The notes under the pieces were generated by a model. It did not search any database and had not been told where the DNA came from. It worked only from the letters and a program-made list of their open reading frames with translations. The translations under genes were made by a program, and so were the position numbers. A DNA stretch of 64,000 nt, taken from IMG/VR virus record IMGVR_UViG_3300010429_001449; one strand, 5' to 3'. Origin of the DNA: a virus. Taxonomy: Duplodnaviria; Caudoviricetes. Each line of letters begins with the position of its first letter. Within the stretch, counting starts at the first letter, position 1. Shown piece after piece: positions 13,019 through 38,757 of this stretch.

Positions 13019-13105
13019 TGGTAGGGATGGGGGGATTCGCACCCCCAAGGGCATTGCGCCCACGGCGTCTTAAGCGCCGTGCGTTTGCTGTTTCGCCACA
13101 TCCCC
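13019..13105 (-). tRNA. trnL: tRNA-Leu(UAA)
   Basis: Cloverleaf with long variable arm, CT-TAA-GA loop, encoded CCA; non-canonical A18/G55. Confidence 0.85.
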
Positions 13106-13450
13106 AGCGGACGCCAGCGGCGCGAACTTTAAGTCCGGTATGAGACCTTTGGCCGCGTGATAGGCGAACGACATAAGTTCCGGAGGCATGTCTTCGCCTG
13201 GATGCCCCGTGTTGATGATATCGAAACCAAACCCGCGCACGAGATAAACGAAGCGGCGCGTTTCCTCGGCGGTCAACCACTCGGTCTTCTCGTCGAACGC
13301 GACCATGATCCGTGCGCCCTTGTCCACAGAGGAGGCTTGATAGTCCCTCCACAGGTCAAGGAGCCACTGTCGATGCTTTTTGGAGAGCTTAGGACGGAGT
13401 TCGTCCAGCATCTCGGCGTAACGCTTGGCAGTATGCTTTGGTTCGTGCAT
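13070..13450 (-). CDS. Hypothetical protein; 3' end runs into tRNA-Leu
   Basis: 126-aa ORF filling the gap; stop codon is the tRNA anticodon. Confidence 0.55.
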   Translation of the reverse strand: MHEPKHTAKRYAEMLDELRPKLSKKHRQWLLDLWRDYQASSVDKGARIMVAFDEKTEWLTAEETRRFVYLVRGFGFDIINTGHPGEDMPPELMSFAYHAAKGLIPDLKFAPLASAGDVAKQQTHGA

Positions 13451-13527
13451 GTGAAAGACGGGGGCGCGGACAGCCGTCGGGTAGGTCTCGGGAATGACTT
13501 GTTAACTTTTGCCCGCGCCCCACGAAA

Positions 13528-14067
13528 CTAAACTGACGCTTCTATCGCGTCGCTGCACTTGGGCGAAGAAGGCGGCGGCTCTGGCGGTTCTGCCGGAGGC
13601 AACTCCGCGAGGGGCACTACGGCTGGCGCGGGCTTCGGCTCTTCCAGGCCAACAACCACGCCGCTGACAGAGAACACGGCGGCGGGCTGCGATAAGACGA
13701 ACTTGGGGTCTTTCCGCGCCGCTTTGATCTCCTCGGCGAGCACGGCGCGAGGATCGGTCGTTTGATAAAACTTGGGGTTGACGCTGTACTCGACGTTGAA
13801 TGTCAGTGTGAGACGAAGAGGCACTCCGCCGCCGTCCTCCGTGACGCGAGTGATAATCGCTTCCGGAACGAGACTGGCAATGGGGAGCGAGAGCGCCTGA
13901 ACAAACTGGCCCTGGATACTGAGAGGCCGTTCCAATGCCACGATGCAAATGCCCTGCGACACCTGCTGCGGGTTCTGCGTGTGGATCGTTGCCGCCGCGC
14001 CGTGCCACGGCTGGTAAGGGTCGTTGATCGTAACCCTTGCGCCCATCTGAACTTGTTCTTGAAGCAT
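13528..14067 (-). CDS. Hypothetical protein with Pro-rich C-terminus
   Basis: AAAGGA RBS; 179 aa. Confidence 0.7.
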   Translation of the reverse strand: MLQEQVQMGARVTINDPYQPWHGAAATIHTQNPQQVSQGICIVALERPLSIQGQFVQALSLPIASLVPEAIITRVTEDGGGVPLRLTLTFNVEYSVNPKFYQTTDPRAVLAEEIKAARKDPKFVLSQPAAVFSVSGVVVGLEEPKPAPAVVPLAELPPAEPPEPPPSSPKCSDAIEASV

Positions 14068-14091
14068 AACGCATTCCTTTCTGTCGAGAAA

Positions 14092-14167
14092 TGGTACTCG
14101 CGCCGGGACTTGAACCCGGAATCTCCGGTTTAGGAAACCGACGCCTTGTCCGTTGGGCTACGCGAGT
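14092..14167 (-). tRNA. trnR: tRNA-Arg(CCU)
   Basis: ACTCGCG/CGCGAGT acceptor, TT-CCT-AA, TTCAAGT T-loop, CCA. Confidence 0.9.
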
Positions 14168-14179
14168 TTGGTAATCTTG

Positions 14180-14256
14180 TGGTACCCCGGACGGGATTCG
14201 GACCCGTAGTCTCGGCCTTGAGAGGGCCGCGTCTTAGCCAACTAGACCACCGGGGC
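14180..14256 (-). tRNA. trnE: tRNA-Glu(CUC)
   Basis: CT-CTC-AA loop, T-loop TCCGAAT, CCA. Confidence 0.9.
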
Positions 14257-14257
14257 A

Positions 14258-14545
14258 TCATGGATGTTGTCCATCGTACTTCGCCAAAAACTCGGTCAAC
14301 CAATCGGGCGGCATGTTCATCGTAGCCATGAACTCCTGTAAGTCCTTAACTTCAACACGCCGCGCCCGCCGCGAGCCACGCGGCAGGTAGTGAAACTTCA
14401 ACAGGCCGTTGTTTGTCCAGCCATGTACTGTCGGAATGGTCGTGCGGCAGATGTCGGCAACTTGACCCGTCGAAAGGATTCCGCGCCGCACCTGCCGAGT
14501 AAACCGCTTCAAACAATCCGTCGCTTCCGCACGTTCATTCGCCAT
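14258..14545 (-). CDS. Helix-turn-helix DNA-binding protein (excisionase/MerR-like)
   Basis: LSTGQVADICRTTIPTVHGW..GLLK...PRGS..RRV...DLQEF; GAGGAG RBS. Confidence 0.8.
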   Translation of the reverse strand: MANERAEATDCLKRFTRQVRRGILSTGQVADICRTTIPTVHGWTNNGLLKFHYLPRGSRRARRVEVKDLQEFMATMNMPPDWLTEFLAKYDGQHP

Positions 14546-14569
14546 AACAGCGTCTCCTCAACCTCGAAA

Positions 14570-14646
14570 TGGTAGGCCCGTCCGGCTACGATCCGGAAAC
14601 CTCCTGCTTGTAGGGCAGGCGCTCTAGCCAATTGAGCTACGGGCCT
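14570..14646 (-). tRNA. trnV: tRNA-Val(UAC), non-canonical (C33, A54/U58)
   Basis: CC-TAC-AA loop, T-loop ATCGTAG, CCA. Confidence 0.8.
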
Positions 14647-14648
14647 AC

Positions 14649-14723
14649 TGGAGAGCGCGGAGGGAATTCCACCCTCGTAAAACAGCTTTGCAGGCTGTTG
14701 CAATAGTGCTCTGCCACGCGCTC
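14649..14723 (-). tRNA. trnC: tRNA-Cys(GCA), non-canonical elbow
   Basis: CT-GCA-AA, U73 discriminator, CCA; D-loop AC and T-loop TGGAATT. Confidence 0.8.
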
Positions 14724-14739
14724 ATTATCACCGCAAGGA

Positions 14740-14829
14740 TGGTGGAACGGGGAGGACTCGAACCTCCAGTTGGCCCTTTCGGTACCGCCAGATTTACAGT
14801 CTGGTCCGCTGCCATTGCGGGACCGTTCC
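14740..14829 (-). tRNA. trnY: tRNA-Tyr(GUA)
   Basis: CT-GTA-AA, long variable arm, TTCGAGT, CCA. Confidence 0.9.
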
Positions 14830-14832
14830 ACA

Positions 14833-15057
14833 TCAACGACGAACCACGCTTGCAGCACGACAAGCTGGACAAATCCACTTGATCCCGACCTTCACCCACT
14901 TCCCCTTCTCGGCGTCCTGAACGGCTTGTTCCGGCGTCGGGCGCATAGGCGTGTACTCAAGGCAGTCTTCCGCGCCCGTATGTGAACACTGAATATAGTA
15001 TCCGCACTCACTGATGTGCTCGACGCCCAACTGCTGTACGTCATGCTCGTTCATCAC
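14833..15057 (-). CDS. Small Cys-containing hypothetical protein within the tRNA array
   Basis: GGAGG RBS; GW...WICPAC ending. Confidence 0.65.
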   Translation of the reverse strand: MMNEHDVQQLGVEHISECGYYIQCSHTGAEDCLEYTPMRPTPEQAVQDAEKGKWVKVGIKWICPACRAASVVRR

Positions 15058-15073
15058 AACCTCCGAGAGGAAG

Positions 15074-15163
15074 TGGCGGACGGAGGGGGACTTGAACCCC
15101 CAGAACCGTGTTAGGGTTCTCCAGATTTCGAGGCTGGTGCCTTGCCAATTAGGCTACCCGTCC
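15074..15163 (-). tRNA. trnS: tRNA-Ser(CGA)
   Basis: CT-CGA-AA, long variable arm, G73, CCA. Confidence 0.9.
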
Positions 15164-15175
15164 GTACGAAAAGAG

Positions 15176-15266
15176 TGGCGGAAGGAGGGGGACTCGAACC
15201 CCCAAGAGAGCTTTTGGCCCTCCGACGGTTTAGCAAACCGTTGCCTTGCCATTAGGCAATCCTTCC
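15176..15266 (-). tRNA. trnS: tRNA-Ser(GCU)
   Basis: TT-GCT-AA, long variable arm, G73, CCA. Confidence 0.9.
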
Positions 15267-15267
15267 G

Positions 15268-15343
15268 TGGCGGTCTGTAGGGGAACTCGAACCCCTTCCT
15301 TCTGGTTGACAACCAGACATGCAATCCTTTACACCAACAGACC
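15268..15343 (-). tRNA. trnD: tRNA-Asp(GUC)
   Basis: TT-GTC-AA, G73, CCA. Confidence 0.9.
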
Positions 15344-15349
15344 AGAAAC

Positions 15350-15460
15350 TGGTGGGCGGCTGGCCGGATTCACACCGACATTCTCACCGAGAAGGATCGT
15401 TGTTGCAGACCACTTCCTTCTAATTGTGAGACCTTACCAGGCTGCAAAATGCAGCCGCCC
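15350..15460 (-). ncRNA. tRNA-like RNA A (9-bp closing stem, T-arm, ACCA end, elongated central arm)
   Basis: GGGCGGCTG/CAGCCGCCC-ACCA; GTCGG-TGTGAAT-CCGGC; D-loop-like GCAGCCTGGT; TCTCAC..AGAAGGA/TCCTTCT..GTGAGA stem. Confidence 0.7.
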
Positions 15461-15471
15461 GAAAACTGTTC

Positions 15472-15585
15472 GCGGCTGGCCGGGTTCATCCGTTCCGCCT
15501 TTGGGTTTGTGGCGGGTAGCTACTCCCGCTCTCACGCGCCCTGGTACGCTCCGTAGGGCATACGATCCCAAGATTACGCAGCCGC
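15472..15585 (-). ncRNA. tRNA-like RNA B (degenerate family member)
   Basis: GCGGCTG/CAGCCGC closing stem preceded by CCGGC as in RNA A. Confidence 0.5.
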
Positions 15586-15596
15586 TAAAGATTGCG

Positions 15597-15759
15597 TGGC
15601 GACTGGCCGGTTTCCTCACCCGGCTCCCATTTGGTCACGGACGGCCCAATGTTGGCTTCACAGAAGCTCCGAACCAAGAGCAATATGTTCACAGCTTCTC
15701 AGCAACTCTGACGCGCCGCGTTGAATTGCAACCAGACGATTGCTTCGTCTCAGTCGCCA
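15597..15759 (-). ncRNA. tRNA-like RNA C
   Basis: TGGCGACTG/CAGTCGCCA closing stem; GGA-GCCGG-GTGAGGAAA-CCGGC arm; 5' hairpin AGACGA/TCGTCT. Confidence 0.65.
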
Positions 15760-15767
15760 AAAATGAC

Positions 15768-15841
15768 TGGCCAAACGGGGAGGAGTCGAACCCCCCTCTC
15801 CCGTTGTACATCGGGTGTTCTGCCATCTGAACTACCGTTTG
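15768..15841 (-). tRNA. tRNA with aberrant 8-nt anticodon loop (identity undetermined)
   Basis: Normal acceptor, D and T arms and CCA; anticodon arm CCCG-ATGTACAA-CGGG. Confidence 0.7.
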
Positions 15842-35147: not shown

Positions 35148-35175
35148 AGTATAATCGCAGGGCGTCAAATGTCAA
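35148..35175 (-). promoter_or_regulatory. Promoter of replication operon (TATACT class)
   Basis: TTGACA-N16-TATACT. Confidence 0.8.
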
Positions 35176-35178
35176 GGG

Positions 35179-35742
35179 CTACCAACGCAGCCCGATGATA
35201 TGAAAGCCGCAAATCACGCCTCTTTCCTCCATCTCGTAGCCTACGAACGGCCCCATCTCTATACCAAGCAGTGTAGGAAACTCTCGATCCAGTGCTACAA
35301 ATAGTGCTGTCCTGTTCTCGGAGTACGCCAAGCCCGGCGCTAAAGAAAATTTTCCGATTTCTGGAATTTCTACGCGAAAAAACTCGAAAGAGGCTGTTGC
35401 CAGCGCGTCTTGTCGGTGCGTGTACAGCGCCCCGGCGTGCGCTTCCGGAACAACAAGAGAGGCTCCTTCGTCGGAGCCTCTCTCTGTTGCAGGCTCATCC
35501 GCGACCCATCCGGGCGACAGACGCAAGGCAGTCGGAGGCGCGGCATCCTTGCTTGTCTTCTCCCGATGTTCTTGAATGACCCGTTGTTCCTTTGGCGTAA
35601 GCAGATGTACTTTGCGATTGCCGATGCAGCCGCTAAGGAGCAGGGGCAGCAGGGGCAGCAGGAGCATCGCCACCGGCGGGAGCCGCAGGCTCAGCGGGCG
35701 CACTGGGCGTCGTATCCGCTGTAGAGTGTGTAGCTTCATCAT
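35179..35742 (-). CDS. Putative lipoprotein (spanin-like position)
   Basis: Basic N-region, LLLPLLPLLLSG-C lipobox, C-terminal amphipathic beta strands ending in W. Confidence 0.7.
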   Translation of the reverse strand: MMKLHTLQRIRRPVRPLSLRLPPVAMLLLPLLPLLLSGCIGNRKVHLLTPKEQRVIQEHREKTSKDAAPPTALRLSPGWVADEPATERGSDEGASLVVPEAHAGALYTHRQDALATASFEFFRVEIPEIGKFSLAPGLAYSENRTALFVALDREFPTLLGIEMGPFVGYEMEERGVICGFHIIGLRW

Positions 35743-36061
35743 CGGGGGTTCCGTTGTTGTGTGAAACGTCCACCAAGGCCGCTGCGGCGGGCCAGAAGCG
35801 ACGCAGAAGGGCCTTAATGACCTGATCCACCACCGCTATCAATCCGACCGTTGTAGCCCACGACAGAGCCTCTGAGAAGGGAATCTTCTGCCAAGCGGCT
35901 ACCAGACCCACCACGGCTCCGATAGGCAGCTTCGTGATAAGGGTCTTCCACTCGAACTTTTCGAGAGGCGTATTCTTGACGTAGCCGATCAAAACGAGGA
36001 TTACGCCAGACATTACGCCCTGCAACAGACTGAGAAGGAGTTGTTGAGTTTCCGGACTCAT
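35633..36061 (-). CDS. Putative holin
   Basis: Three hydrophobic segments then basic LLRRF; AGGAGG RBS; ATGA coupling to the protease. Confidence 0.65.
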   Translation of the reverse strand: MSPETQQLLLSLLQGVMSGVILVLIGYVKNTPLEKFEWKTLITKLPIGAVVGLVAAWQKIPFSEALSWATTVGLIAVVDQVIKALLRRFWPAAAALVDVSHNNGTPDDEATHSTADTTPSAPAEPAAPAGGDAPAAPAAPAP

Positions 36062-36951
36062 GGTCGTGGACCTCCTAGTATTGCGGTTGTTTCCAGACCG
36101 GGCGCGGCCAGCAGAAGCGGGTCTTGCCCGTAGTTAATCTTGAGCGTGTCTGCCGTCTCTTTGACGATCAAGCCTGTCGGCAGCGTGCCGTTGTTGATTT
36201 GCTGGAGCATTATGTAAGAGAAAGCGCCCCGGTAAACGCCGCCCATCTTTGTCTCGGCGGCGGTTTGGTTGTCTTGGCACGCGGCGATGCTGATGACGTT
36301 CTTGCGTTCCTGCCGAAGGGTTGTGCCGAGGCGGTGAATCGGGAGCGTTTTGCCTTCCGCACGCACTTGGATGTCGAACGGCGGGGCCAAGAAACGAGAC
36401 AGGCGTTCCGGTTCTTCTGCGGGCTGACCCGCCGGGTCGTTGCGCGTTAAAGTTCCGGAATGGCAGCAGTCGAAGATCATCCAGGCGAACGCTTCGGGAT
36501 GCAGCTTCTCCAAGCACTCGGCGATTTCGTCGTCCAGAAGGGCGTAATCCCACGACATGTCAACCGGGCAGATACACTCGTCAAGACGGTCTTCCAGTTC
36601 GTCTCCGTCGCGGTCGCGCAGACGAGAGCCGTGCCCAGAGTAAACGAACGCGATCTCGTCGCCCTTCTTAGTGCCCTCGCACAACCAACGCAAGCGAGTA
36701 AGGATGTTTTCCTTCGTTGCCCGCTCGTTGAGCAGCACCCTTGTGTCGTAGTCGAACTTTTTGGTCAGCGTAGACCACCACTCTTTTGAGTCGTTGACAC
36801 ACCCCCGGAGGGCGTTCCCTCCAGGATAGGCGTCAATCCCAACTACAAGCGCCTTTCGCGTTCCTGCAAACCGAAAATCAGGAGGAGCGTCTTTTGCGGA
36901 CTCGGGCGATTTGGCGCGGTTGGTTCCAAACAGTCTGGCGAACAATCCCAT
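36058..36951 (-). CDS. Caspase-family (peptidase C14, metacaspase-like) protease
   Basis: KALVVGIDAY, LRGCVND, YSGHGS (His), FDCCHSG (Cys), AACQDNQTA.E, GAFS. Confidence 0.93.
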   Translation of the reverse strand: MGLFARLFGTNRAKSPESAKDAPPDFRFAGTRKALVVGIDAYPGGNALRGCVNDSKEWWSTLTKKFDYDTRVLLNERATKENILTRLRWLCEGTKKGDEIAFVYSGHGSRLRDRDGDELEDRLDECICPVDMSWDYALLDDEIAECLEKLHPEAFAWMIFDCCHSGTLTRNDPAGQPAEEPERLSRFLAPPFDIQVRAEGKTLPIHRLGTTLRQERKNVISIAACQDNQTAAETKMGGVYRGAFSYIMLQQINNGTLPTGLIVKETADTLKINYGQDPLLLAAPGLETTAILGGPRP

Positions 36952-37038
36952 TGATCATGATCCTCCACAAACAGTAATGCGGCGGACATCGCCGCGATCT
37001 GCCGACATTATAGCACAAAACAGCCCAGAAGTGTTGTG

Positions 37039-38757
37039 CTAGTTTAGTCCTGTGATGCGCTCTATGTGAGTAAGCGGATCATCGTAACCATCGCAAAACA
37101 CCACTAGAGGATAGGGCACGGTAATATCAGAGTTAAGATCGCCCGTTTTCTGTAATCCTATTGTGATTCGGCGGTCGGAGAGTATGGTGTCGTTGCCCGC
37201 CGTAATCGGAGCTTCAAACGTGTATGTACGGATAGTTTCTCGGTTGTACGTATTATCGAGTTCTTCCCGGATGGCGTGATTCAAGAAAGCGCGGCCAAAA
37301 CTTCCTTGCGGAACGATTGTCCACGCGCTTCTGAAAATGTTGGACCACAGAACCAGACTTGATCTCGCCGACAACATCGAGCGGAATCGCCCCACTGTAT
37401 GAAAGAAGTCTGAGTTCAGACCAACCACTATCCGCCAAAACGGAGGAATAACAGGGTTTAGGTTGACGGGTACAAGTTTTGACCGCGACGCTCCTAGCGA
37501 AAACGCAAAGTCGGACCACGCAAGATAAGGGTACGGCGTTCCGGGAGGCGGCGTGAGAGCAACGCACGCGCACATCGTGTCCGGCGGGCCTTCTGGAAAC
37601 GTAGACCAATTGCCGAAAGTGGCCTCGTCTATAAGAGAAGGCACGGTTGAACTGGACCAATCGGGATCGCCCGAGTACATGACCTTGGTCCCTACTTGGT
37701 AGAAGGGGCGGATGACGTAGGTGGTTCCTCCATCAATCCGCTTTACGTAAACGCAACCTACGCGCCTGCGGTATGTGTATGTGCCGGGCGGAAGGAACGC
37801 ATCGCCGTTAGCCTTCTTAAGATAGCCGTACAGCGTAGATGTTTCTTGACCCGGAAGCAAGCTGCCGTCGGCCAACAGATAAATCCAGTACCATCCCGTG
37901 GGCGACGACGGGCAATCCTGTCTACCATTAACGCCGATCACGCTCGGATTTATGGTCACAACGTTTGTCGCGTTGAAGATCACACTTCCCGTTCCGTCAA
38001 CGCAGACCGTGCCCGGCATGATTCGGATCAAGTTGTCGCTCGACTCGCCGAACATCGTAACATTGGCCACGGCTCTCTGGATTGCTGTAGCCGTAGAAAC
38101 GGTGTTGATGGTTTTGTACAGCGGGTCAGAAACCTTGTTGATGCCCTGCGGATATACGCCTCTCACGAAAACGGCGTCATCAACACTGAAGTTGATTGTT
38201 TCCGCGCCGGTAGAACGGGCTATGACCGCTCCGAAGACCTGCCCTTCGCCGCCGTCCGTCAAGCTATCACGAATTTCTTTGGTGACGCTCATCAGCTTCC
38301 AGTCGCCGGAAGCGTCTTCCAACCAACGACCGTCGCTCCACGGAGGCGAGTAAGCAACATCGTTGCCGCCCGAGTCGTGGTCCTGCAGCATCAGATGAAC
38401 TTTGCCTTGATCAGCGACGTTTGTAACCTTCACCCACGCGGAGAACGAGGCGTACTCTGTCTGAACTTCTTTCCACTGAGGATCACCCAACACCGTCTTA
38501 AGACCGCCTTGTTGCCCTGCGCCGCCGGTAGTCACGGCAACGTCGGCTACTGTCCCGCTGCTGTATCTGGCTGCTCCGCCGCCGCTGTTCTGTGTGACTA
38601 TTACGCCAGTAGCGGTGCCAGGATAGATAAGCCAATCCACAGGCAGTCCCAACGCCCACGCCTCTACGCCGCCGTTGTTTATGAGCGACTCCGGATAAAC
38701 TTCCCGGATTCTGGCTCCGTAGGCCCGTTCTAGTTTTTGCCAGCTTGCTTTATCCAT
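37039..38757 (-). CDS. Tail fibre / receptor-binding protein with carbohydrate-binding-like domain
   Basis: LINNGG.EAW..P.DW N-domain; WYWIYL..RRRVG fibre segment; end of tail module. Confidence 0.65.
   Translation of the reverse strand: MDKASWQKLERAYGARIREVYPESLINNGGVEAWALGLPVDWLIYPGTATGVIVTQNSGGGAARYSSGTVADVAVTTGGAGQQGGLKTVLGDPQWKEVQTEYASFSAWVKVTNVADQGKVHLMLQDHDSGGNDVAYSPPWSDGRWLEDASGDWKLMSVTKEIRDSLTDGGEGQVFGAVIARSTGAETINFSVDDAVFVRGVYPQGINKVSDPLYKTINTVSTATAIQRAVANVTMFGESSDNLIRIMPGTVCVDGTGSVIFNATNVVTINPSVIGVNGRQDCPSSPTGWYWIYLLADGSLLPGQETSTLYGYLKKANGDAFLPPGTYTYRRRVGCVYVKRIDGGTTYVIRPFYQVGTKVMYSGDPDWSSSTVPSLIDEATFGNWSTFPEGPPDTMCACVALTPPPGTPYPYLAWSDFAFSLGASRSKLVPVNLNPVIPPFWRIVVGLNSDFFHTVGRFRSMLSARSSLVLWSNIFRSAWTIVPQGSFGRAFLNHAIREELDNTYNRETIRTYTFEAPITAGNDTILSDRRITIGLQKTGDLNSDITVPYPLVVFCDGYDDPLTHIERITGLN

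Follow-up and report, generated by a model that had tools for sequence, protein, structure and literature searches.

In this work, we are describing three overlapping genes, coding for a metacaspase-type protease, a holin-like membrane protein and a lipoprotein, on a 64,000-nucleotide (nt) stretch of DNA (the window) from a virus of the class Caudoviricetes (IMG/VR record IMGVR_UViG_3300010429_001449). The window corresponds to bases 33158-97157 of a linear IMG/VR contig of 268,817 bp. As a preliminary description of the window had proposed, the genes, which lie on the minus strand, come right after a tail-fibre-like gene and encode, in this order, a C14 peptidase with an intact His/Cys dyad, a translationally coupled holin-like protein with three hydrophobic segments, and a lipoprotein; these points of gene anatomy were borne out by our analysis (Table 1).

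Table 1. Positions of the three genes, of their internal features and of the adjoining elements, in window coordinates (aa, amino acids; ORF, open reading frame)
Feature	Position	Strand	Basis or remark
Promoter-like site TTGACA-16-TATACT, 11/12	35148-35175	-	consensus scan only; right after the lipoprotein stop, before the replication-side genes
Lipoprotein, 187 aa (162 aa from alternative start 35667)	35179-35742	-	ORF and lipobox
Lipobox LLSGC, Cys39	35626-35628	-	sequence
Dual-coding overlap, 110 nt (35 nt from the later start): variable tail of the membrane protein and signal peptide of the lipoprotein, in two frames	35633-35742	-	coordinates
Holin-like membrane protein, 142 aa	35633-36061	-	hydropathy, alignments, family search
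ATGA overlap of caspase stop and membrane-protein start	36058-36061	-	read from sequence
Metacaspase-type C14 cysteine protease, 297 aa	36058-36951	-	Pfam PF00656
Codon of caspase catalytic Cys163	36463-36465	-	motif DCCHSG
Codon of caspase catalytic His107	36631-36633	-	motif YSGHGS
Caspase N-terminal extension, aa 1-30: short hydrophobic peptide (MGLFARLFG), then Pro/Ala/Ser-rich linker	36862-36951	-	alignment
Terminator-like hairpin between tail-fibre-like gene and caspase gene	36979-36995	-	consensus scan only
Tail-fibre-like gene, 572 aa (context of the trio, not a member)	37039-38757	-	downstream end of the tail/baseplate gene run

Anatomy of the three genes

The caspase matches the Pfam family Peptidase_C14 (PF00656) with 92.6 bits (E 3.9e-26, cut-off 21.4). 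Both catalytic residues are invariant across an alignment of 17 sequences, the window caspase and 16 homologues, and so is an acidic stretch, RDRxGDELxDxxDE. The acidic RDRDGDELEDRLDE cluster is kept relative to the metacaspases Yca1 and CgMCA-I; its residues D113-D124 are conserved and align with both. Searched against the Protein Data Bank (PDB), the alignment profile found type I and type II metacaspases (CgMCA-I, Yca1, AtMC4, TbMCA2 and AtMC9) at E values from 1e-38 to 1e-52, and Geobacter GSU0716 at 7e-27. An AlphaFold2 (AF2) model (predicted local distance difference test score, pLDDT, 80.3; predicted template modelling score, pTM, 0.81) gave AtMC4 and AtMC9 as top Foldseek matches, with GSU0716 also present, at probability 1.00 and a query template modelling score (TMq) of up to 0.70. 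In family score, catalytic dyad and caspase-hemoglobinase fold the protein agrees with Peptidase C14 and the metacaspases and, judged from sequence and model, is an intact metacaspase-type enzyme. By analogy, cleavage most likely takes place after Arg or Lys, and Ca2+ may be needed. A profile search of six-frame ORFs found this single caspase in the contig.

The catalytic domain is preceded by an extension which is lacking in bacterial homologues, where the chain begins 1-3 residues before KALLVGIN of the first strand, and over which the pLDDT falls below 50. Comparable hydrophobic N-termini occur in the caspases of loci L001 and L117, and true transmembrane (TM) anchors in those of L023 and L025. 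The preliminary description had called this N-terminus amphipathic, which did not hold: MGLFARLFGTN is hydrophobic, and its hydrophobic moment was reached by 839 of 1000 shuffles. The protein has no signal peptide. Pfam revealed in it no glycosidase, amidase or peptidoglycan-endopeptidase family and no wall-binding domain, so that it does not qualify as an endolysin.

The closest homologues of the caspase are bacterial proteins, some of which lie in toxin-antitoxin-rich regions. A C-terminal PG_binding_1 domain is found in certain bacterial homologues (35-39% identity), which have no signal peptide. Fusions of this kind were noticed in Desulfobacterales (P0054, P0079, P0080, P0089 and P0104; loci L113 and L115), and the one in Desulfonema limicola is three genes away from a gene for Peptidase_M15_4. 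A prophage origin of these fusions was considered and rejected, their contexts being chromosomal and not prophage-like.

The membrane-protein gene and the caspase gene share bases at the start codon of the former and the stop of the latter, and AGGAGG, within the caspase codons for LGGPRP, is located 8 nt upstream. According to hydropathy, the encoded protein has one strong hydrophobic segment (residues 8-26) and two weaker ones (40-56 and 62-78). A conserved core (residues 1-100) is followed by a variable acidic Pro/Ala tail, with KALLRR after the third segment; Arg87-Arg88 of this stretch is invariant among close relatives, and an Arg-Arg pair is also present in L117. In a word-indexed search of 5.8 billion proteins, both this protein and the lipoprotein matched close relatives only. 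An exhaustive profile search of 1.84 billion proteins provided 128 family representatives of the membrane protein at E<=1e-3, nearly all of them 85-140 aa long and aligned over the full three-segment core. In 77 aligned family members, the mean number of Lys and Arg residues was 3.2 in the first loop and 2.3 after the third segment, and 0.6 and 0.4 in the N-terminus and the second loop, respectively. This distribution fits a predicted topology with the N-terminus outside and the C-terminus inside, with which the family variants bearing an added N-terminal signal peptide (L117, P0135) agree; the topology is uncertain, because the third hydrophobic segment carries charged residues.

The product has the general marks of a holin: it is a phage membrane protein of small size, it contains at least one TM segment, and its C-terminus is hydrophilic and charged. 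Its score against Phage_holin_3_3 (PF16083) is sub-threshold (16.1 bits, cut-off 28.4, E 0.012); it had no PHROG match and could not be assigned to a described holin family. Feature and structure searches of the ESM Atlas returned phage proteins, and the only named clusters among them were families of holin superfamily III, which we take as leads and not as proof. A tblastn search of GenBank phages with the membrane protein and the lipoprotein gave chance-level matches only.

Several family members depart from the common size. Four proteins of 210-230 aa (P0138, P0139, P0143 and P0149) have a helical domain of about 120 aa after the third segment. In L117, an ORF of its own (72 aa, L117:5468-5686), placed between the genes of the membrane protein and the lipoprotein, resembles this domain, suggesting a split or a fusion.

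The lipoprotein has a basic n-region, and its C-terminal half, which ends in ...HIIGLRW, looks strand-rich by sequence. An AF2 model built from three sequences was unusable (pLDDT 35), and the structural leads of the Atlas pointed, with low confidence, to outer-membrane beta-barrels. A lipobox and a terminal W or F are also present in the homologues from L002, L110, L117 and L120. The signal peptide is encoded wholly in the last 110 nt of the membrane-protein gene, and the same kind of overlap is present in L002 (80 nt), L110 (44 nt) and L120 (35 nt); within it the membrane-protein tail is not conserved and the lipobox is.

Such a layout, in which the lipoprotein gene begins in the 3' end of the membrane-protein gene and extends past it in four lineages, together with the conserved lipobox, is what is expected for the outer-membrane subunit of an overlapped two-component spanin of the P2 LysB/LysC type. 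The two proteins could then form a spanin and the caspase be accessory to outer-membrane disruption. One relative, P0144 (282 aa), joins the membrane core, a lipobox-like segment (LTAIFSGGC) and a long helical region in one chain, which may be a fusion or a read-through of an overlapping lipoprotein gene and which could be counted in favour of a spanin. However, an inner-membrane subunit would have a single N-terminal TM segment and a long charged coiled coil in the periplasm, whereas the membrane protein has three hydrophobic segments and no such domain; its charge pattern places the C-terminus in the cytoplasm, the helical domain of the long family variants would be on the same side, and the mature lipoprotein, of about 148 aa and apparently strand-rich, differs from the short proline-rich outer-membrane subunits of spanins. 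We regard a spanin as very unlikely.

Conservation of the trio and phage caspases in other cassettes

The three genes were found in the same order in four lineages: the window, L001/L002, L110/L112 and L117. The preliminary description had suggested examining whether the linkage of caspase and holin-like gene is conserved, and it is kept in all four. In L001/L002 the caspase, the membrane protein and the lipoprotein are each 55% identical to those of the window; the genes overlap by GTGA and by 80 nt, with a tail-fibre-like gene upstream and UDG, DnaB and PolA genes downstream, as in the window. L110 and L112 are short contigs which start in the caspase C-terminus ...LGGPRP and continue through a GTGA overlap to the membrane protein (68% identical to that of the window) and the overlapping lipoprotein (51%). 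L117 represents a much more distant lineage, where the trio closely follows a large tail-fibre-like gene: the caspase is 41% identical to that of the window (E 5e-56), the membrane core 50% (1e-29) and the C-terminal half of the lipoprotein 27% (5e-8), and a 2-nt gap separates the caspase and membrane-protein genes. The start/stop overlap of these two genes is therefore present in three lineages, with near-abutment in L117. The same layout is seen in the context of P0143, where the membrane-protein gene shares 4 nt with a gene of 281 aa and is overlapped at its end by one of 182 aa.

In a fifth lineage, L120, the membrane-protein and lipoprotein genes overlap and no caspase is present; L118 and L119 have a homologue of the membrane protein with neither partner, in L118 three genes upstream of the terminase. 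From this it follows that the membrane-protein/lipoprotein pair is the core of the module, and the caspase a frequent, tightly coupled addition. Taken together, the sequence comparisons support the view that the trio is one conserved, tightly coupled module. As separate observations, a gene for a single-domain response-regulator receiver lies just upstream of the module in L117 (3703-4083), in L120 (559-1014) and in the context of P0143, the window phage itself having a receiver-domain gene elsewhere in its genome; and L001 encodes, from 13831-14002 onward, an 882-aa ResIII helicase with an intein-splicing domain (precomputed Pfam).

In IMG/VR, at least 138 stretches encode caspase relatives, in varied contexts. 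One separate clade of 13 rows (Shimodaira-Hasegawa-like approximate likelihood ratio test, SH-aLRT, 91) contains caspases with N-terminal TM anchors, or with hydrophobic peptides and Pro linkers; positive charges follow the anchor, and the protease domain is therefore predicted to be on the cytoplasmic side. Judged by their neighbours, several genes of this clade are located inside lysis or lysis-like cassettes. In L031 an amidase_2 gene overlaps the caspase start (against the PDB, peptidoglycan recognition protein, PGRP, at E 3.7e-8 and T7 lysozyme at 6.8e-5; its NCBI name is N-acetylmuramoyl-L-alanine amidase), and a lipoprotein and then a 61-aa protein with two TM segments are encoded downstream. 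In L038 the caspase gene is overlapped at its start by a T4-lysozyme-like gene (E 2.8e-11) and at its end by the gene of a lipoprotein. L026 has a caspase of the L031 lineage with another gene in the upstream slot, and genes read as terminase come shortly after the cassette in both L026 and L038. Lipoproteins or small membrane proteins also adjoin the caspase in L027, L028, L034, L035 and L073, where no endolysin was recognised.

The slot upstream of the caspases of L026 and L031, which are at least 80% identical, deserves mention on its own: it is filled by an unrelated 152-aa protein (L026:319-777) and by amidase_2 (L031:5549-5992), respectively, and looks like a swap. The L026 gene looked like an M15 peptidase, but no PDB match was obtained and we leave it unassigned.

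The window caspase falls outside the 13-row clade, and the association of caspases with membrane or lysis genes, along with the gain of a hydrophobic N-terminus, therefore arose at least twice. This bears on another explanation, in which the caspase is a counter-defence or host-takeover protease that cleaves host immune or housekeeping proteins and stands beside the membrane genes by chance. The many contexts of viral caspase genes and the bacterial origin of the closest homologues, with toxin-antitoxin-rich surroundings for some, would suit it. Against it speaks the start/stop overlap kept in three lineages and the adjacency kept in the fourth at only 41-50% identity, which argue for a joint function of the caspase and the membrane protein, as well as the independent gain of the hydrophobic extension in two caspase clades adjoining membrane or lysis genes. 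Such a counter-defence or host-takeover protease is, in our estimate, improbable to a high degree.

A proposed lysis-type module and its alternatives

Tailed phages are understood to lyse their hosts by a holin, followed by a peptidoglycan hydrolase and then an outer-membrane step. The preliminary description had seen no peptidoglycan hydrolase in the window and no lysozyme domain on the spike; hmmscan likewise found none, and Phage_base_V was the sole match of spike type. By Pfam, no such hydrolase is encoded beside the membrane-protein gene in the window, L001 or L117, nor could one be recognised next to the family members of L118, L119 and L120. The search was then extended to the rest of the genome, as had also been proposed, with all 269 ORFs of at least 115 aa of the 269-kb contig compared, in four sets, with Pfam. 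Among the matches listed there was no peptidoglycan hydrolase family; the list for the first 57 kb is complete, and in the three sets beyond it the families not listed have E values above 7.5e-8, 2.2e-5 and 3.5e-5. A rescan of 146 ORFs of 115-340 aa beyond 57 kb (E<=0.01, complete or nearly complete lists) gave no peptidoglycan hydrolase either. Four endolysin examples, run with local phmmer against all six-frame ORFs of at least 60 aa, matched nothing at E<=10, and the caspase profile recovered its own gene. No further cluster that could convincingly be read as holin, spanin or endolysin genes was noticed when the predicted membrane proteins of the contig were inspected. The finding which the preliminary description had named as speaking against it, a canonical endolysin-holin cassette elsewhere in the genome, was not obtained in these searches. 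This absence covers Pfam families in a contig which is about 77% complete, with weak domains in ORFs above 340 aa covered in part.

The most direct explanation of such a result, put forward in the preliminary description, is that the caspase stands in place of the endolysin: it would leave the cytoplasm through the holin and destroy a proteinaceous wall or the peptides of the sacculus, no peptidoglycan hydrolase being needed. The negative searches are in agreement with it, as is the lack of a signal peptide, a property of holin-dependent endolysins, and the occurrence of PG_binding_1 in some bacterial homologues. On the other hand, a canonical endolysin lies beside the related caspases in the clear lysis cassettes of L031 and L038, the anchors of related phage caspases put the protease domain in the cytoplasm, the window caspase has no peptidoglycan-binding domain, and we know of no C14 peptidase that cuts peptidoglycan. 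In addition, hydrolases of novel families would be invisible to Pfam, the weak matches of ORFs above 340 aa were listed only in part, and the contig is incomplete. Thus the lysis-like character of the cassette was upheld by the conserved module and by relatives in real lysis cassettes, and the replacement of the endolysin by the caspase was not; we consider the latter hardly probable. Nor did we find support for a host with a proteinaceous or S-layer envelope: a lipobox lipoprotein with an aromatic last residue and two sigma-70 genes point to a diderm bacterial host.

The reading which we favour, tentatively and with a probability of about 0.45, is that the trio is a late lysis-type module directed at the envelope, comprising a class-I-like holin and an outer-membrane lipoprotein together with a metacaspase that is cytoplasmic, probably associated with the membrane, and synthesised along with the holin. 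The 142-aa protein would be the holin, with three membrane segments, the N-terminus out and the basic C-terminal flank in, and the lipoprotein would be exported, lipidated and delivered to the outer membrane. The metacaspase, whose translation is coupled to that of the holin-like protein, would stay in the cytoplasm, since it lacks a signal peptide, and would probably be tethered by its short hydrophobic N-terminal peptide. The relatives found beside canonical endolysins argue that the role of the protease would be additional to wall degradation, most likely that of an accessory or a regulator which supports lysis by proteolysis from the inner face of the membrane. Possible targets are the cytoplasmic tail of the holin, at Arg-Arg, or host proteins of envelope maintenance, and Ca2+ entering upon membrane permeabilisation may be the switch. 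The terminator-like hairpin upstream of the trio and the promoter-like site downstream of it, both from a consensus scan, are counted in favour of a lysis module.

Several observations weigh against a lysis module. The holin call is built on size, hydropathy, charge pattern and a sub-threshold similarity (16.1 bits against 28.4), with charged residues in the third hydrophobic segment, and the N-terminal peptide of the caspase is not significantly amphipathic. No endolysin adjoins the trio in the window, L001 or L117 and none was found in the contig, so that the genes recognised do not add up to a full lysis system. The window caspase is placed outside the 13-row clade of lysis cassettes, and its nearest viral relatives (L036, L041-L043) have neither lysis-like neighbours nor an N-terminal extension. 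When the surroundings of about 20 phage-caspase lineages were scanned with PHROG, the neighbours among the matches listed were mostly HNH and other nucleases and accessory genes, with no lysis family enriched.

Position is a further point on this side, since superinfection-exclusion lipoproteins, too, are typically encoded directly behind the tail fibres. T5 Llp and Cor are lipoproteins of this type, which block phage entry. The membrane protein and the outer-membrane lipoprotein could accordingly serve in superinfection exclusion or inter-phage competition by blocking the entry of other phages, with the caspase as an added effector which, for example, kills or disarms the superinfected cell. 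The module directly follows the last tail-fibre-like gene in the window, L001 and L117, the pair occurs without a caspase in L120, both proteins are confined to one phage group, as accessory genes often are, and a generic PADLOC caspase model matches the caspase (E 7.3e-19). Neither protein, however, resembles an annotated exclusion protein in the tblastn search of GenBank phages, the related caspases adjoin endolysins and not receptor-binding genes, and to our knowledge a cytoplasmic protease tightly coupled to a membrane protein is not a feature of known exclusion systems. We hold exclusion to be possible, though doubtful.

A bolder version of the lysis reading may also be formulated, in which this jumbo phage lyses its host without any peptidoglycan hydrolase: holin triggering would admit Ca2+, and the membrane-bound metacaspase would then cleave proteins of envelope maintenance or wall synthesis, or the holin itself, with the participation of a pore-like lipoprotein in the outer membrane. 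This seems to us unlikely.

Genomic setting and relation to known systems

The contig, of 55.5% G+C and without a terminal repeat, has about three quarters of its genes on the minus strand and an estimated completeness of 77% (CheckV). Gene order in the window runs from a contractile-tail module (tape measure, baseplate wedge of PHROG 219 at E 9e-41, gp25, sheath, tube and Phage_base_V spike) through the tail-fibre-like genes and the trio to replication genes for UDG, a DnaC-like protein, DnaB, a Toprim primase and PolA. The 572-aa tail-fibre-like protein has no family of its own in Pfam or PHROG; a 575-aa homologue occupies the same place relative to the trio in L001/L002. IMG/VR queries with this protein or the caspase alone found no close relatives, and a query with UDG returned distant phages only.

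The contig encodes an anaerobic ribonucleotide reductase and two sigma-70-type factors, consistent with an anaerobic bacterial host. Sequence identical to the phage occurs in three anaerobic-digester metagenome studies. An RNA library from activated sludge contains short contigs which are identical to parts of the caspase and membrane-protein genes; these indicate presence and were not used as evidence of expression, because such contigs cannot show transcription. Host prediction through a TnpB copy was abandoned as uninformative, the match being one of just 38 residues in a Methanosarcina metagenome-assembled genome.

Other features of the genome are given here for completeness. Ten transfer RNA (tRNA) genes are clustered at 13019-15841 of the window, and at the edge of this cluster (15768-15841, minus strand) ARAGORN predicted a tRNA of undetermined type with a four-base anticodon (gtac), which may resemble frameshift suppressors or else be a miscall. 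Outside the window, between 133 and 269 kb of the contig, three TnpB/IS605-type genes, at least nine DNA methyltransferase domains and a LemA-TPM pair were found, together with genes for a pyruvoyl arginine decarboxylase, Thg1, NAPRTase, PP2C, Kelch-repeat proteins and PI3/PI4-kinase-like and Ser/Thr-kinase-like proteins.

With type I metacaspases and prokaryotic orthocaspases (Peptidase C14B; Yca1, 4f6o; Candida glabrata MCA-I, 7qp0; T. brucei MCA2, 4af8; Geobacter GSU0716, 3bij) the phage enzyme has the fold and the His/Cys dyad in common, and Yca1 and CgMCA-I contain a stretch equivalent to its RDRDGDE..D..DE acidic cluster. It differs by a 30-aa N-terminus of hydrophobic peptide and linker in place of the eukaryotic prodomain and by its coupling to a small membrane protein. 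The best structural matches in BFVD are proteins of eukaryotic viruses, namely giant-virus metacaspases (Fadolivirus, Clandestinovirus and Medusavirus) and an ascovirus executioner caspase, and no phage protein was among the significant ones.

The membrane protein resembles class I holins (lambda S105) and superfamily III (P1 LydA, PF16083) in its small size, three segments, predicted N-out/C-in topology, basic stretch and variable tail. Unlike them, it scores below the Pfam cut-off, has no dual-start motif and no adjacent endolysin, and some of its family have an extra signal peptide or the cytoplasmic helical domain of about 120 aa. The trio as a whole is compact, with overlapping frames and a lipoprotein start inside the membrane-protein gene, at the end of late genes, as are the lysis cassettes of phages of Gram-negative hosts (holin, endolysin, and Rz/Rz1 or LysB/LysC spanins), but no peptidoglycan hydrolase was found in it, a cysteine protease takes the place of the soluble enzyme, and the lipoprotein is large and apparently strand-rich. 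With the caspase lysis cassettes of uncultured phages (L026/L031, L034/L035 and L038) it shares a metacaspase with a hydrophobic N-terminal peptide and an adjoining lipoprotein, and with several of them small membrane proteins; in L031 and L038, in contrast, a canonical endolysin overlaps the caspase start, the lipoproteins and membrane proteins are of other families, and the caspases are of the separate clade. Bacterial operons of gasdermin and caspase-like protease also place a caspase-fold protease beside a membrane-active protein with a removable C-terminal tail. Here, however, the neighbours are an integral protein with three TM segments and a lipoprotein, neither with a Pfam or PADLOC match, in a phage and not in a defence island, and the membrane protein was not recognised as a gasdermin.

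Our full-text literature searches found no paper on a caspase within a phage lysis cassette; a preprint on sponge viromes names viral metacaspases only as auxiliary genes (10.64898/2026.01.21.700432). What the present locus adds is a metacaspase coupled to the other genes of a lysis-type cassette in which no endolysin could be recognised. In addition, the small membrane-protein family, with its 128 representatives, and the lipoprotein family are otherwise unannotated.

If the favoured reading is true, a caspase belongs to the lysis gene set of phages, recruited at least two times and coupled in this case to a holin-like gene, which would constitute an unstudied proteolytic step in phage release and would link a protease family of cell death to virus-driven bacterial lysis. 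It raises the questions of which substrates the protease cleaves and whether it is gated by membrane permeabilisation. That no endolysin was found in this phage raises also the question whether release can proceed without one; were hydrolase-free lysis true, it would be a protease-based lysis pathway in a large double-stranded DNA phage.

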